Source of the DNA: Patescibacteria group bacterium
GTDB taxonomy: Bacteria > Patescibacteriota > Minisyncoccia > Phycocordibacterales > PALSA-1337
Reading direction: 5' to 3'
DNA: 59,659 bases
Assembly (NCBI GenBank): GCA_024654575.1
Contig: JANLHG010000020.1
Coordinates: 121,991-181,649 of the forward strand
Shown one piece after another: positions 30,868 to 38,069 of the stretch. The translations under genes were made by a program, and so were the position numbers. The first letter of the stretch is position 1; each line of letters opens with the position of its first letter. The notes under the pieces are model-generated. The model made no database searches, was not told where the DNA came from, and saw only the letters and a list, made by a program, of their open reading frames with translations.

Positions 30868-32001
30868 ATGCTTATTGTGACCAAACAAGAAGAAAAAAAG
30901 ATAAGGGAAAAATTAGAGAAAAGGCAGGATATAGAAGCTATACGAATAAAGAAATACTTAGCAATGCCTGATTTATCTAGGACTAAAGACAATCCGATAA
31001 ATGAGCTTATAGAAAAAATTACTGTATTACCTATATTTAATAAATTCGATCAAATAAATATACCAGAAATAGTTCCGGCAAAGGAAAGTTTCGACCTATT
31101 CGATTTCCCAGCCAATCATCCAGCTAGAAGTAAAAGTGATACATACTATCTAGATAAAGAAAATATTTTACGTACCCATACTACAGTTATGTGGTATTAC
31201 TATTTCAATTTACCAGAAATAAAGAAAAGATTGAAGAATAATGAAGAAATAGGAGTTATATCATATGGTAAAGTCTACAGAAAAGATGAAATTGATAGGA
31301 ATCATATGAATGTATTCCATCAAATAGACGGACTTTATTTATGTCAAAATAAAGACAAGGTTATTAAACAAAATGATTTACAAGATGTACTAATAGAAAT
31401 AGCTCAAGCCGTTTTCGGTAAAAATATAAAGTACAAATTCAATCCAGATACTTTTCCATATACATACAATAGTTTAGAAATGGAAGTAGATAAGGGAGGT
31501 AAATGGATAGAAATTCTAGGAGCAGGTATAGTACAACCAACTGTATTAGAGAAATTAGGTGTAGATTCAAAAAAATACAATGGCTGGGCCTTCGGCTTCG
31601 GTCTAGAACGCTTGGCTATAATAAATATGGAGCTTCCTGACATAAGACTATTGTGGTCAGATGATACTAGAGTGAAAAAGCAATTGAAACTCGATCATAA
31701 ATTCGTTGAGGTTAGCAAATACCCTCCTATAGTGCGTGATATATCATTTATAGTAAAAAATAGTTTTATTCCTAATGATTATTTCGATCTTGTGAGAGAG
31801 ACAGTGCCGGAAATAGTAGAACAAGTCGAGCTTATCGATAAATATGAGAATGAGAAAAAATTCGGAAAAGATAAGATAAGTTACGCTTATAGAATTACTT
31901 ATCGTTCACTAGACCATACACTTACTAGTGAAGAAATAGATACTATGCACAAAAAAATAGAAGCCATAACAACCGAAACATTCAAGGCTGTTATTCGCTA
32001 A
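30868..32001 (+). CDS. pheS: Phenylalanyl-tRNA synthetase catalytic domain fused to FDX-ACB anticodon-binding domain (monomeric type)
   Basis: HPARSKSDTYY, LRTHTT, FHQIDG, FPYT, GWAFGFGLERL; C-terminal YPPIVRDISF...YRSLDHTLT. Confidence 0.92.
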   Translation: MLIVTKQEEKKIREKLEKRQDIEAIRIKKYLAMPDLSRTKDNPINELIEKITVLPIFNKFDQINIPEIVPAKESFDLFDFPANHPARSKSDTYYLDKENILRTHTTVMWYYYFNLPEIKKRLKNNEEIGVISYGKVYRKDEIDRNHMNVFHQIDGLYLCQNKDKVIKQNDLQDVLIEIAQAVFGKNIKYKFNPDTFPYTYNSLEMEVDKGGKWIEILGAGIVQPTVLEKLGVDSKKYNGWAFGFGLERLAIINMELPDIRLLWSDDTRVKKQLKLDHKFVEVSKYPPIVRDISFIVKNSFIPNDYFDLVRETVPEIVEQVELIDKYENEKKFGKDKISYAYRITYRSLDHTLTSEEIDTMHKKIEAITTETFKAVIR

Positions 32002-32206
32002 CAAAGACAAATCTTGATACTTTTTTACCATTTATTTCAACTTTTTCTGTAAACATAGAAACTGGTCGTACCCAAAATTTACTCTTTTTATTTTCATACA
32101 ATGCTTCATATACAACCAAATCTTCAAGAGTTTCTGAATGCTTTGCTATAAAATGTGTCCGATATAAATTCTTTGTTTTTGAATGTTTATATACGCCAAT
32201 TTTCAT
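31991..32206 (-). CDS. DUF1653-family protein
   Basis: YKHSK..Y, HSETLEDLVVYEALY, WVRPVSMF. Confidence 0.85.
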   Translation of the reverse strand: MKIGVYKHSKTKNLYRTHFIAKHSETLEDLVVYEALYENKKSKFWVRPVSMFTEKVEINGKKVSRFVFVSE

Positions 32207-32219
32207 AAATTTTTACCGG

Positions 32220-32292
32220 AGCCGCCTCTCGGACTCGAACCGAGGACCTTCGCTTTACAAAAGCGTTGCTCTACCAACTGAGCTAAGGCGGC
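32220..32292 (-). tRNA. tRNA-Thr(TGT), CCA not encoded
   Basis: GCCGCCT acceptor, AGCTCAGTTGGTAGAGC D-arm, CGCT-TTTGTAA-AGCG, GGTTCGAGTCC. Confidence 0.95.
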
Positions 32293-32296
32293 TTGT

Positions 32297-32533
32297 TTAT
32301 ATTCTTTTTTTTAAGTAACTTCTACCAAATCCTGTTTTTAAAGATTTTTCTCTTTCAATTGCTTTTTTCTTATCACGACATGCTTCATAATACATTAATT
32401 TAAAAGGACGTCTATTCTTTGTTATCTTAACTAATCCACTATTATGTTCCTCTATACGCTTTTTAAGGTTAGAAGAAAATCCTATATAAAGTTTATCATC
32501 TTTCTCACTTTTTAAAACATAAGTATAAAACAT
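32297..32533 (-). CDS. Stand-alone GIY-YIG endonuclease (78 aa)
   Basis: YTYVL..LYIGFSSNL..R..EHN, RRPF, A..REK.LK. Confidence 0.93.
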   Translation of the reverse strand: MFYTYVLKSEKDDKLYIGFSSNLKKRIEEHNSGLVKITKNRRPFKLMYYEACRDKKKAIEREKSLKTGFGRSYLKKRI

Positions 32534-32551
32534 AACTTTCTACATATAGAC

Positions 32552-32607
32552 ACCAACTCCTGCCCGCAATGCTTCGCATAGCGATGCAGGCGGGGAGCTA
32601 AGGCGGC
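32552..32607 (-). repeat. Duplicate of tRNA-Thr nt 1-20 interrupted by a 36-bp palindromic element (32559-32594)
   Basis: GCCGCCTTAGCTC[CCCGCCTGCATCGCTATGCGAAGCATTGCGGGCAGG]AGTTGGT; the flanks match the tRNA 5' end exactly. Confidence 0.9.
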
Positions 32608-32626
32608 AATATTTAATGTAACAATT

Positions 32627-33034
32627 TTACAATGTGTTATTACTTCTCTTACTTTCCTCCACAATGTGTTTGAGGAAAAAAGAGACCGACCCTTTCCTCT
32701 TTATCACACCTTTGCCGAGAACCATATTAATAGGACTAGATGGTTTATTTTCCAAGTGTTTTTTAATTACTTGTTTTAATTTCATATAAAGTTTATGACA
32801 AGCGAGCAACACATGATAAATTATAAACCTTCCAAGAAGTATTGCGTTGCGTTTATTAACAAAAGAAAAAGTAATCTTAATTTTAGCAATTTGATTATGA
32901 ATTACATGGTTAGTATTGTCGCTTATTTTACTGAGAATAGATTTTTTACCAGTCTTAGCTTCAATAAGTTTCGTAACAAACATTATAATAATGCCAGCAA
33001 GTGATATTATGAGAAATATTGTTGCAGTGTTCAT
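32627..33034 (-). CDS. Hypothetical membrane-anchored protein
   Basis: N-terminal hydrophobic helix, Lys-rich. Confidence 0.7.
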   Translation of the reverse strand: MNTATIFLIISLAGIIIMFVTKLIEAKTGKKSILSKISDNTNHVIHNQIAKIKITFSFVNKRNAILLGRFIIYHVLLACHKLYMKLKQVIKKHLENKPSSPINMVLGKGVIKRKGSVSFFLKHIVEESKRSNNTL

Positions 33035-33039
33035 AATTA

Positions 33040-33498
33040 TTATTCTTTAACATCGTAACGTGAATAATTTGATAATTCTATTTTTTCTCCAAATTTTTGA
33101 GAAGCTGAATCAATCAGATTTTTTATAGTCATTTCTGGATTTTTAATAAATGATTGTCCCAAAAGAACATCAATTGATTCTGATTTCATAGCCGTAATAT
33201 GCATAGCGATATCATGTGCAAGTTTTATAAATTCTTCATTACCAGATACGAAATCTGTCTCCGAACGCAATACCAAAATAGTACCTGAAGTACCATTATT
33301 ATGGATATAAGAAGAAACCGTACCTGCTTTTAATTCCCTATCCATTTTTTTATTTGCAAACTCAACACTCTTTTCTTGCAAAAAAACAATAGCTTTTTCT
33401 GTATCACCGCCAGTTTCTTCAAGGGCTTTTCTGCATTGCATAATAGATACGCCGGTTTTGTCACGTAATATTTTTATTTGTTCTGCAGTTATATTCAT
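33040..33498 (-). CDS. tsf: Elongation factor Ts (short form)
   Basis: LRDKTGVSIMQCRKAL, SETDFV; downstream of rpsB. Confidence 0.95.
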   Translation of the reverse strand: MNITAEQIKILRDKTGVSIMQCRKALEETGGDTEKAIVFLQEKSVEFANKKMDRELKAGTVSSYIHNNGTSGTILVLRSETDFVSGNEEFIKLAHDIAMHITAMKSESIDVLLGQSFIKNPEMTIKNLIDSASQKFGEKIELSNYSRYDVKE

Positions 33499-33510
33499 TT
33501 TTATTATTTA

Positions 33511-36589: not shown

Positions 36590-37000
36590 TTACGCACACA
36601 TTCTACAAAGCCCAAAAAGCTCTAAAGAATGTTCCCTTACATTTTTAAACTTAGACGATTTAACGACAATCCCTCCTAAGATTTTTTCTAATTCTGAATT
36701 CTCAAAGTCTTCAATTTCATTACATTTTGTGCAAACAATATGATGATGGTGATCATCGGCTAATTCAAAATATGCTGAGTTTTTTCGTAAATTTATTCGT
36801 TTCAATATTCCACAACTTTCTAACGAAAGCAGAGTCCTGTATATGGTCGCTTCATTAGTTTTCCTTAATGCCTTTATTTTTGAAATATTTTTATAAACAA
36901 TTTCTGCGTTAATGGGGAATTTACTTTTGGAAAAAATATCTAATATAGCCAGCCTCGCTGGTGTAGCTTTATAACCCCTTTCATTTAACATTTCTTTCAT
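36590..37000 (-). CDS. Fur-family regulator (probably Zur)
   Basis: ATIYRTL, HHHHIVCTKC, GLCRMC; adjacent to the ZIP gene. Confidence 0.9.
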   Translation of the reverse strand: MKEMLNERGYKATPARLAILDIFSKSKFPINAEIVYKNISKIKALRKTNEATIYRTLLSLESCGILKRINLRKNSAYFELADDHHHHIVCTKCNEIEDFENSELEKILGGIVVKSSKFKNVREHSLELFGLCRMCA

Positions 37001-37020
37001 ATTTTCTATATTATATTAAA

Positions 37021-37035
37021 TGCAAGTTGTTTGCA
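37021..37035. promoter_or_regulatory. Putative Fur/Zur autoregulatory palindrome
   Basis: TGCAA-N5-TTGCA overlapping a TTGCAA-17-TAATAT promoter. Confidence 0.4.
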
Positions 37036-37091
37036 AGTAGAATATGTGGAAAACTATTTCGCATGGAAAGAGTTTTGAAAAAAATGATAGC

Positions 37092-37308
37092 GCGATTTTA
37101 GCTCCCGCAAAATCGCTCCGTTTTCTTAATTCCGACAATGTTTCGTTTGGTGGTGTTTGTTTGAAAAAGTCAGAACCCATTTTGCAGAGAACCCTGAAAA
37201 CTAAAATGGACTCGGCAGGGCGAAACAATTTGTCTGGGGTTTCGGATTCGCCCTGCCTCGGCTGATTTCCCGCCCGCAGGAGGGGTCTAGGGAGGAATGC
37301 GGGCGGGA
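37092..37308. other. GC-rich multi-hairpin att-like region
   Basis: Inverted repeats 37092-37099/37109-37116 (8 bp), 37214-37224/37247-37257 (11 bp), 37268-37278/37298-37308 (11 bp). Confidence 0.6.
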
Positions 37309-37352
37309 TTCGGACTGGGGGTTTTCGGAAATTCGGCGGCATCCATACAGAA

Positions 37353-38069
37353 TCAATTCTTAAGGTATTGTACTAGAAAATTTATGCTTCTGTCTATAAT
37401 TTCTTTCGATTGTTCGTATGTCCATTTGCTATGAGAATATCCCTCAAAATTTTCTACCTTATGATTTTGTTGCGCATTTTTGGAAATTGCATTTCGGTTT
37501 TGCTCATCAACATATTCATCAGCCGTACATTGGACAATGTACATCGGAGTTTTAATTAATGAAAGTTTATCTGCAACTTTTGCGTCATGAGCTTCCTGCC
37601 AAAAACGCGCTTGTACAATTTGTCCGCTTTCTTCAATTATTCCATTTTCAGGAGCAATAAATTTATCTACGTTTGGATCGGGAGACCAAGCAATTATTGC
37701 GGACAAATTTGGTAATTCGGAGCCGACAGCAATGACAGCCGCTCCGCCCATACTTTGACCAAAGAGGGCGACTTTATAACCTTGCTTAAGATAATTTTCA
37801 GAAATTGCTTTTGTGGTTTCCATCCAATCAAGGAAACTTGAGTCAAAAAAGTCGCCCTCGGAATTCCCACTTCCATATTGGTCAAAGCGCAAAGAAGATA
37901 TACCTTGCTTGGCTAACTGGCGAGCGACTGTCACAAAAAAACGATTTGGTCCGACACTTGTGCCACGATAACCATGACAGAAAATGACAATACTTTTACT
38001 ATCTGCGTCGTGAAAAGCAGTTACTACACGATGTCCGTTGAAATTTTGATCTTGTGTAAATTCTTTCAT
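37353..38069 (-). CDS. Alpha/beta hydrolase
   Basis: FCHGY oxyanion loop, GQSMGG nucleophile elbow, D and H downstream. Confidence 0.92.
   Translation of the reverse strand: MKEFTQDQNFNGHRVVTAFHDADSKSIVIFCHGYRGTSVGPNRFFVTVARQLAKQGISSLRFDQYGSGNSEGDFFDSSFLDWMETTKAISENYLKQGYKVALFGQSMGGAAVIAVGSELPNLSAIIAWSPDPNVDKFIAPENGIIEESGQIVQARFWQEAHDAKVADKLSLIKTPMYIVQCTADEYVDEQNRNAISKNAQQNHKVENFEGYSHSKWTYEQSKEIIDRSINFLVQYLKN

Follow-up and report, generated by a model that had tools for sequence, protein, structure and literature searches.

An apparently mobile cassette of a minimal GIY-YIG nuclease gene and a DNA hairpin module ahead of tRNA and tmRNA genes in Patescibacteria

The DNA described here is a stretch of 59,659 nt from a Patescibacteria group bacterium (assembly GCA_024654575.1, contig JANLHG010000020.1, positions 121,991 to 181,649), referred to below as the window, in which a tRNA-Thr gene is preceded by a net insertion of 315 bp (32293-32607) carrying a gene for a 78-aa GIY-YIG nuclease. 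This locus is probably one fixed copy of a compact, selfish, homing-type cassette that is widespread in Patescibacteria. The constant parts of the cassette are the nuclease gene and a hairpin module (HP) of 36-50 nt, and its constant location is immediately 5' of tRNA or transfer-messenger RNA (tmRNA) genes. The same architecture recurs at many such genes, filled and empty alleles of one site exist, a resident tRNA gene was split and a replacement tRNA supplied, and the nuclease gene is under purifying selection and shows low synonymous divergence between hosts. The element is apparently mobile and undescribed, and is placed with the free-standing homing-endonuclease kind.

All features of the locus lie on the minus strand of the window (Table 1), in the order tRNA-Thr nt 1-13, HP, nt 14-20, linker, GIY-YIG open reading frame (ORF), 4 nt and complete tRNA-Thr(UGU). 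The initial annotation, made from the sequence alone, had described a 20-nt tRNA repeat, a 36-bp palindrome, an 18-nt spacer, the ORF, 4 nt and the tRNA, and every detail of this layout was confirmed; when the 36-mer is taken out, the 20 nt correspond exactly to tRNA-Thr positions 1-20. The 13-mer GCCGCCTTAGCTC has two copies in the window with one mismatch allowed (chance expectation 0.02), and two copies were seen in 0 of 100 shuffles. The 36-mer CCCGCCTGCATCGCTATGCGAAGCATTGCGGGCAGG occurs once in the window at up to three mismatches, and its GC-rich composition stands out against a window G+C of 33%. The GIY-YIG gene is the sole ORF of the 315-bp insertion, and no integrase, transposase or recombinase gene was found there by ORF and Pfam annotation, as had been claimed. 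The nuclease had also been taken for the sole cargo; it is the only ORF, but HP is a conserved partner in almost every copy, and the insertion is larger than the roughly 280 bp first estimated. The linkers of related loci are 3-30 nt long and share no conserved sequence, and that of the window is probably a degenerated tRNA remnant plus a ribosome-binding region. The gap between stop codon and tRNA is mostly 2-12 nt in related loci. Counterparts of the 5' fragment are present in the related loci (L numbers) L161, L163, L001, L002, L012 and L180; in L161 and L163 the fragment matching part B runs on to positions 26-30.

Table 1. Features of the tRNA-Thr locus, in minus-strand order (coordinates of the window)
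Feature	Position	Strand	Basis or remark
Extended -10-like motif TGTTACATT	32615..32623	-	Read from sequence; 8-16 nt upstream of the tRNA fragment
5' remnant part A, GCCGCCTTAGCTC, tRNA-Thr positions 1-13	32595..32607	-	13/13 identity to 32280-32292
HP, 36-nt GC-rich imperfect hairpin CCCGCCTGCATCGCTATGCGAAGCATTGCGGGCAGG	32559..32594	-	Splits the remnant between tRNA positions 13 and 14
5' remnant part B, AGTTGGT, tRNA-Thr positions 14-20	32552..32558	-	7/7 identity to 32273-32279
18-nt A/T-rich linker gtctatatgtagaaagtt ahead of the ATG	32534..32551	-	Sequence
78-aa GIY-YIG nuclease ORF, ATG start	32297..32533	-	Pfam PF01541, E=4e-18, residues 1-70
4-nt gap acaa, stop codon to tRNA position 1	32293..32296	-	Sequence
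Complete tRNA-Thr(UGU), functional copy	32218..32292	-	ARAGORN; Rfam tRNA, 68.9 bits at 32292..32220

Recurrence of this arrangement was assessed through the protein family. The search for homologues gave 364 proteins (E≤1e-5), the best 120 of which are 67-86% identical, mostly 78 aa long and spread over many Patescibacteria lineages, and an exhaustive profile search gave 3,726 clusters (50% identity) at E≤1e-10. Eighty loci were then taken from species-representative public genomes, and their tRNAs were called with ARAGORN. A tRNA gene on the same strand begins within 30 nt of the nuclease stop codon in 57 of these 80 loci (mostly at 2-12 nt) and at 31-250 nt in a further 10; a tmRNA gene lies downstream in six (Rfam, 100-140 bits). 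Two loci are truncated by a contig end with the start of the tRNA still visible, three are the upstream member of a tandem pair, and only L017 and L040 have no tRNA. The occupied tRNAs comprise 19 anticodon types and 11 amino-acid classes, with Gln, Ile(UAU) and Lys the commonest. The UAU anticodon is uncommon in bacteria generally; tRNA-Ile(UAU) accounts for 12 of the 80 loci (L003-L005, L007-L009, L011, L019, L023, L024, L031, L054). At the tmRNA loci (L025, L046, L053, L068, L069, L078) the nuclease gene is placed between the end of an smpB-like gene and the tmRNA, HP adjoins and overlaps the first GGG of the tmRNA, and the nucleases group together in the tree.

A second architecture has the ORF first and HP abutting position 1 of the tRNA (L026, L035, L051, L052, L058) or the tmRNA, with no duplicated fragment. 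Tandem whole units (L016, L029), ORF-less units of fragment, HP and fragment (L060, L061, L027, L041) and a deletion derivative in which the ORF is reduced to its last bases (L062) were also found. The survey of Candidate Phyla Radiation (CPR) genomes that had been suggested as a check therefore came out as anticipated, since other small GIY-YIG loci carry tRNA 5'-fragment duplications at many different tRNAs. It also disposes of the objection that the repeat is an assembly artefact or a chance match, a reading that we regard as excluded for practical purposes because the same architecture occurs in dozens of independent assemblies from different studies; the 13-mer and the 7-mer, moreover, both stand in tRNA register.

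Two observations on distribution are recorded separately. Many close homologues lie on contigs of 0.5-2 kb only, as might be expected if a repeated or polymorphic element disrupts metagenome assembly. L040 (700-1120) is on a contig assigned by binning to a Methanosarcinaceae archaeon; its nuclease gene lies between two direct HP copies with no tRNA nearby, which may reflect either mis-binning or transfer outside Patescibacteria.

The copies at tRNA-Thr share the neighbourhood rpsB, tsf, a small ORF, the element and tRNA-Thr, so that alleles of one site can be compared. Filled alleles are those of the window, L001, L002, L012, L047, L065, L161, L163, L180, L184 and L186; empty alleles are L082-L084, L086-L089, L171, L173 and L177-L179. 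The loci L082-L089 were recovered by a metagenome scan with RpsB, and their divergence is similar to that of the filled loci. In L082-L084 and L086-L089, tRNA-Thr is in the same place and no ORF, HP or fragment is present. L085 (5890-5928) is a scar allele, in which an intact tRNA-Thr is preceded, at a distance of 17 nt, by a fragment GCCGCCTTAGCTgttTTGGTAGg, and ORF and HP are absent; three bases of the fragment are changed exactly at the HP site of its relatives (GCCGCCTTAGCT gtt TTGGTAG), and its tRNA allele is unlike that of its closest relative L002 and nearly identical to that of the window. Within one clade, RpsB identities to the filled L002 are 86% for L085 (scar), 78% for L086 (empty), 72% for L065 (filled) and 68% for L088 (empty). 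By direct reading, the motif GS(V/I)SFFLK ends both the 135-aa ORF upstream of the window's element and the upstream ORFs of the empty L082 and L087; these two loci are empty versions of the window's own arrangement. BLAST detected no similarity between the 135-aa ORF and the 131-aa ORF of the L163 clade. The comparison of empty and filled alleles in relatives, which had been proposed as a check, thus yielded empty, filled and one scar allele, and the site is polymorphic among relatives for presence and absence of the element, as is expected of a free-standing homing endonuclease gene.

The most informative comparison comes from L163 (the P0013 locus), whose EF-Ts was used as a marker for genus-level relatives (EF-Ts 78-86% identical). 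Filled alleles of this clade are L163 and L180, and empty ones L171, L173 and L177-L179; all of them have the same genes on either side. When L163 and L171 are aligned, the flanks are homologous and L163 equals L171 plus two insertions. The first is HP, between tRNA positions 13 and 14. The second lies between about positions 30 and 35, in the anticodon loop of the resident tRNA-Thr, and consists of a 10-nt linker, a 237-nt ORF, a 6-nt leader, a complete tRNA-Thr whose allele (GCCGAAA...TTTCGGC) is not that of the resident gene, and 4 nt. The leader, aatatt, is the sequence found upstream of the resident gene, and the 3' remnant, from G35 to the gene end, is 42/42 identical to L171. This alignment indicates that the cassette split the resident tRNA and brought its own replacement. 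A related order is seen in L161, the nuclease of which is 86% identical to the window's: a 5' remnant (1-27) is followed by the ORF and the complete tRNA, and the degenerate 3' remnant (36-74) that comes next lies between two copies of a 35-nt trailer.

In the light of these loci, the 20-nt "duplication" of the window is best interpreted as the 5' part that survives from a disrupted resident gene. The initial annotation had proposed that the element rebuilds the tRNA; a replacement is indeed carried by the L163 cassette, but the tRNA is supplied complete, so the 20 nt are a remnant and not a rebuilt 5' end. In the window, L002, L012 and L047, a search of the 200 nt that follow the tRNA turned up no 3' remnant, which was either deleted or never formed, conversion having used the complete tRNA as right-hand homology. 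Of 49 loci compared, 37 have a 5' fragment that matches the neighbouring tRNA exactly. In L009, L031, L050 and L163, the remnant is a different allele from the adjacent functional tRNA and one that is functional in another genome. In L059 (2430-2830), the remnant (GCCGGAGTAGCTCAGCGGTA, HP, GAGCAACGCCT) derives from a different tRNA than the complete tRNA-Thr(CGU) downstream, which suggests that the cassette moved between different Thr isoacceptor genes.

The frequent identity of fragment and adjacent tRNA would also be expected if the repeats arose by local duplication, that is, by replication slippage or tandem duplication around a hairpin with the nuclease gene as a passive passenger, and the repeated 35-nt trailer of L161 and the tandem units of L016 and L029 point the same way. 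We nevertheless consider this very improbable, since the same ORF and HP occur at 19 or more tRNA types and at tmRNA in many lineages, the functional tRNA of L163 is an allele other than that of the split resident gene, and the nuclease is maintained by purifying selection.

The nuclease gene has dN/dS ratios (nonsynonymous to synonymous) of 0.06-0.21 in 12 pairs, and neither internal stops nor disrupted copies were found among those examined. Synonymous divergence (pS) of the nuclease gene is 0.37-0.49 for the pairs window-L163, window-L180, window-L002 and L163-L180, values estimated from about 55 synonymous sites with a standard error of about 0.07, and that of rpsB and tsf is 0.65-0.87 (saturated) in the same genome pairs. 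The divergence of the nuclease gene is about equal between distant hosts (window-L163, nonsynonymous divergence pN of tsf 0.36) and close ones (L163-L180, tsf pN 0.13). Because its pS is far below that of the host genes and flat over host distance, horizontal transfer into the same site across lineages is indicated; by this measure, though from few sites, the history of the gene is unlike that of its hosts. Recombination between lineages is further indicated by the remnants that carry tRNA alleles functional elsewhere.

Strong purifying selection would equally suit a vertically inherited, domesticated host gene that serves tRNA or RNA metabolism, or repair at highly transcribed tRNA loci, the fragment and HP being regulatory or processing signals and the absences repeated losses. 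The very large family (3,726 clusters), its partial clustering by tRNA type and the fusion of some prokaryotic Slx1-like domains to a TrmH-type tRNA methyltransferase, which has been interpreted as hinting at RNA metabolism (PMC1564403), are in keeping with such a role. A host gene is nonetheless distinctly unlikely to explain synonymous divergence far below that of host genes and incongruent with host distance, clean empty sites in close relatives, tandem copies, deletion derivatives and scars (L016, L029, L062, L085), foreign tRNA alleles in remnants, or the use of many unrelated tRNAs and tmRNA as targets.

The protein belongs to the GIY-YIG superfamily, with a PF01541 match of 65.9 bits against a cut-off of 22.6. 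Residues Y5, Y16, G18, R26, H30 and E50 are among those invariant in 43 family members, and their catalytic roles are presumed from what is known of I-TevI and UvrC. The AlphaFold model (mean predicted local distance difference test score, pLDDT, 94.4) has the element order E-E-H-E-H-H, a three-stranded sheet flanked by helices. In a Foldseek search of the PDB, BH0048 and several Slx1 structures (template modelling score, TM, about 0.7) ranked above the catalytic domain of I-TevI, and the N-terminal domain of UvrC was also matched. The family profile matched UPF0213 entries 1zg2 (BH0048, E=9.8e-9) and 1ywl (EF2693, 1e-6) and SLX1 7wme (3e-3), with no match to the Tev or UvrC branch at E≤0.01; identity to the stand-alone UPF0213/Slx1 proteins is only about 30-40%. 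By profiles and model, the protein is a minimal stand-alone GIY-YIG domain of Slx1/UPF0213 type, consisting of the catalytic domain only. According to Pfam and the model, that domain makes up the whole 78 aa, and an attached DNA-binding or targeting domain is absent. Pfam found no domain besides GIY-YIG in the gene of the element, an HUH (Y1) transposase included, and PHROGs and NCBIfam gave no match above cut-off. A prokaryotic stand-alone Slx1-type family was described in 2006 as the minimal GIY-YIG form without auxiliary domains (PMC1564403).

The second constant part, HP, stands beside the GIY-YIG gene in nearly all of the 80 loci. In the window its arrangement is CCCGCCTGCA-TCGC-TAT-GCGA-AGCAT-TGCGGGCAGG, and as a DNA hairpin it folds with -11.2 kcal/mol (z -2.3) on the minus strand and -12.5 kcal/mol (z -3.7) on the other. 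Three forms were distinguished: the window type CCCGCCTGCA...TGCGGGCAGG, its reverse complement, and a variant with perfect arms, CCCGCCCGCA...TGCGGGCGGG. The inner stem has 17 double-sided compensatory cells and 95% of its cells paired, and its covariation score was matched by none of 500 shuffles. Positions 16 and 26, a pair of the mirror-image register, also covary (A-T, G-C and T-A in variants), which fits a quasi-palindrome that works in either orientation or on either strand. A symmetric palindrome fold, in which position i pairs with 37-i, was rejected, as positions 11/21 and 16/26 covary in two slipped registers. No Rfam family other than tRNA covers the region or HP; at E≤1, the matches in 31500-33500 were the tRNA and two at chance level.

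In most loci, tRNA 5' sequence is broken by HP within 120 nt upstream of the ATG. When HP was excised computationally at about 50 loci, the flanks joined as contiguous tRNA sequence with no bases duplicated or missing; the terminal inverted repeats and target-site duplication that mark miniature inverted-repeat transposable elements (MITEs) were not found at these loci. The insertion point varies (after tRNA position 4, 6, 8-13, 17-20 or 22), and the 5' fragment likewise ends at different points (position 14 to 32 or later). One HP copy lies within another in L006, L030, L039, L045 and L063, and occasionally HP sits in the loop of an unrelated hairpin (L019, L071). At the Thr locus alone it is found between positions 13 and 14 (window, L161, L163), between 8 and 9 in reverse orientation (L184, L186), and as two copies in the remnant (L180). 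Because position, orientation and nesting vary, HP appears to be an independently inserting module that favours tRNA 5' sequence.

Such behaviour raises the question of which part is the primary element. HP might itself be the mobile DNA and the GIY-YIG protein its structure-specific, transposase-like nuclease, which would cut DNA stem-loops (the cruciform of the tRNA D-arm, hairpin loops) so that HP is copied into the break and the gene travels beside one HP; the element would then be a hairpin-targeting DNA transposon of a new kind and not a homing cassette. Clean insertion at variable positions in either orientation, nesting in other HPs and in unrelated hairpin loops, a site that differs among close GIY-YIG relatives at one locus, Slx1-type structure-specific nucleases as nearest structural relatives, and compensatory changes in both mirror-image folds all agree with this proposal. 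It remains an unlikely one, since the loci examined contain few solo HPs away from a GIY-YIG gene (one similar palindrome in the window, at 37269-37307), target-site duplications and terminal repeats are lacking, and the replacement tRNA and split resident gene of L163 are not accounted for. A broader joint claim is put forward tentatively, as less likely than not but with a substantial chance of being true: a catalytic-domain-only Slx1-like nuclease and its cognate hairpin may form a new class of bacterial mobile DNA that is guided by structure rather than sequence, enters essential genes for structured RNAs and offsets the damage with a spare copy of the gene it breaks. Its targets would be the stem-loops of tRNA, tmRNA and perhaps rRNA genes, and it would combine a "bring-your-own-tRNA" device with a separately transposing hairpin.

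For the homing-type cassette that we favour, the following course is inferred, comprising nuclease activity, target, homing, co-transcription and the role of HP. The nuclease would break an unoccupied tRNA gene, and the break would be repaired by copying the occupied allele, with conserved tRNA sequence on both sides as homology, in a homing-like gene conversion. As insertion would destroy the tRNA, the cassette would supply an intact one directly downstream of the nuclease gene, and the resident gene would be left as an upstream 5' remnant, of which the 20-nt repeat of the window would be an example, and sometimes as a downstream 3' remnant. The nuclease gene would be read through from whatever transcribes the tRNA, which would be freed by ordinary 5' processing. 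HP would insert separately, both into tRNA 5' sequence (positions ~0-22) and into the loops of other hairpins, and its insertions would survive only in the dispensable remnant or in the leader just ahead of position 1. It probably destroys the nuclease target in the remnant, or would be the structured DNA recognised by a domain-only nuclease, and it may shorten a direct repeat that would otherwise permit precise deletion. The initial proposal of a minimal selfish element is largely supported by recurrence, by the filled and empty alleles and by synonymous divergence, but it had left out the HP module and the supply of a whole tRNA.

Several points weigh against this explanation. In the window, which has no 3' remnant, the fragment allele equals that of its tRNA, and a 5' duplication is there indistinguishable from a split. 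A 3' remnant from the anticodon onward is present in only 2 of about 60 loci (L161, L163). No filled/empty polymorphism was found within one population, all 8 contigs that carry P0013 being filled; an exact-sequence look-up of the window's DUF1653 and EF-Ts proteins returned no record. The divergence estimates depend on the small number of synonymous sites given above. The GIY-YIG tree clusters partly by tRNA type (Leu, Ile(UAU), tmRNA and Lys/Asn/Pro groups), which points to much vertical inheritance and a fair fidelity to target, and the sequences from the Thr locus loosely follow host distance. Every characterised GIY-YIG homing enzyme has a DNA-binding domain, whereas this protein has none; cutting of DNA by a 78-aa protein, and the site of the cut, are predictions from sequence. 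The functional tRNA beside the gene holds the presumed target sequence, and the explanation would need a means by which it escapes cleavage. Finally, the element is absent from the searched phage, viral and plasmid records that might represent vectors: no relative turned up when IMG/VR viral contigs were scanned with the family alignment, and tblastn against phage and plasmid records gave distant relatives only (34-42% identity), so that no vector was identified.

Among known systems, the nearest functional analogue is SegB of phage T4, a free-standing GIY-YIG homing gene of T-even phages. The SegB site includes a conserved tRNA motif, the T-psi-C stem-loop, and SegB is preferentially inherited with flanking tRNA genes while markers of the recipient are lost (PMC2330249). 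Like segB, the nuclease gene described here is located between genes in a tRNA gene region and not in an intron, and in L163 a tRNA travels with it. The intergenic position, outside introns and inteins, is that of a free-standing homing gene: the ORF lies between a tRNA fragment and a tRNA, and no intron model was matched. Unlike SegB, which has a DNA-binding region and belongs to the HE-Tev branch, the protein has 78 aa, consists of the catalytic domain only and is nearest to UPF0213/Slx1; the element is chromosomal in bacteria, is associated with a hairpin module and tRNA remnants, and occupies many tRNA types and tmRNA.

Integrase-borne islands and prophages likewise land at tRNA and tmRNA genes, supply the displaced part and leave a partial tRNA direct repeat at the boundary. 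In contrast to them, the 315-bp insertion encodes no recombinase, the remnant is 5' and not 3', and a complete tRNA is supplied in L163; the direct repeat of the tRNA 3' end that is typical of islands was not found within 200 nt in the window. The interruption of the L163 resident tRNA-Thr in the anticodon loop, with exon-like flanks usable as homology arms, resembles that of group I introns in tRNA anticodon loops, but the interrupted gene is not spliced and is replaced by a second intact tRNA, and no group I ribozyme core was found by Rfam at E≤1. The minimal domain is shared with YhbQ, YazA and BH0048 (Slx1/UPF0213), BH0048 giving the top hit among proteins of solved structure, and for these proteins the literature searched gave no link to tRNA 5' ends, hairpin modules or mobility.

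The GIY-YIG ORFs of CPR rRNA genes come from the same bacterial group. The insertions that contain them belong to neither group I nor group II introns and tend to sit at the top or base of stem-loops, and the authors place the ORFs outside spread by homing (Tsurumaki et al., 2024, PMC11270868). These ORFs may be related to the nuclease reported here, although that study covers rRNA only and mentions no tRNA, hairpin module or duplicated fragments. The HP module, for its part, invites comparison with another set of elements. REP/RAYT, IS200/IS605, integron attC sites, mitochondrial GC clusters and double-hairpin elements all involve short imperfect palindromes that are tied to one enzyme gene, occur in either orientation and may be nested. 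HP resembles these hairpins in its conserved mismatches and in being GC-rich in an AT-rich genome, and differs in that its partner is a GIY-YIG and not an HUH/tyrosine enzyme and in that there is usually one HP per gene without dispersed arrays. No description of a tRNA-linked cassette of GIY-YIG gene and hairpin was found in the full-text literature searched, the coverage of which is incomplete, so that a prior description is possible.

With regard to expression, the locus is surrounded by housekeeping genes (DUF1653, pheS, a small membrane ORF, tsf and rpsB). The extended -10-like motif TGTTACATT that had been pointed out is indeed present, in the 19-nt gap between the stop codon of the upstream ORF and the tRNA fragment, but a sigma-70 consensus scan of 32100-32800 reported no promoter at this motif, which may be a mere resemblance and is at most a putative promoter. 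The scan, which speaks neither for nor against the motif, found a single site, fewer than in shuffles: TAGACG-16-TATTAT at 32387-32414 (minus strand), within the nuclease ORF, where it may act as an internal promoter for the tRNA. No terminator was found in the same interval. In the empty relative L087, the tRNA begins 5 nt past the stop codon of the upstream ORF; for this reason the tRNA is possibly transcribed with the upstream genes, a dedicated promoter is not assured, and the proposed insertion "behind the tRNA promoter" is not established. Since only 25 nt separate HP from the ATG and 4 nt the stop codon from the tRNA, there is no room for a promoter or terminator belonging to the nuclease gene, which would be expressed by read-through.

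If confirmed, the cassette would be among the smallest known autonomous elements, with about 300 bp, one 78-aa protein and one hairpin. It would represent a way for selfish DNA to settle, without a recombinase, at tRNA and tmRNA genes, which are universal and conserved sites, with the disrupted gene replaced in the most clear-cut example, and would give a testable role to the very large group annotated as "GIY-YIG nuclease family protein", the prokaryotic Slx1/UPF0213 branch of which had none. It would also help to explain horizontal replacement of tRNA alleles in ultra-small bacteria and might explain the copies on short contigs, and a minimal nuclease with a defined DNA hairpin partner could serve studies of structure-specific DNA cleavage.

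Two further observations concern sequences near or similar to the cassette parts. Non-coding inserts of 100-165 nt lie 3' of the complete tRNA in L006 (2829-3012), L018 (2828-2994), L031 (2818-2965) and likewise in L041, L070 and L077, flanked by a direct repeat of 12-23 nt of the tRNA 3' end (CCA included where encoded). These repeats were considered as split-gene remnants and rejected, since they comprise the last 12-23 nt only and flank unrelated inserts. The inserts of L006 (Leu-CAG) and L018 (Leu-UAA) share the core gggaaggggcCgggaaac...tttcccg...aaaccgtgggttttcagaag, and as a group they look like a second, unrelated class of tiny insertions at tRNA 3' ends, or relics of integrated elements. 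In the window itself, a GC-rich intergenic stretch of about 330 nt with long perfect hairpins (37016-37350) separates two minus-strand ORFs, one Fur-like (36590-37000) and one hydrolase-like (37353-38069). The stretch had no Rfam match at E≤1, and its RNA fold has a z-score of -2.8. One of its hairpins, at 37269-37307 (CCCGCCCGCA..TGCGGGCGGG), has the arms of the perfect-arm HP variant and is the only other similar palindrome of the window; the stretch could be an unannotated structured RNA or a decayed element.

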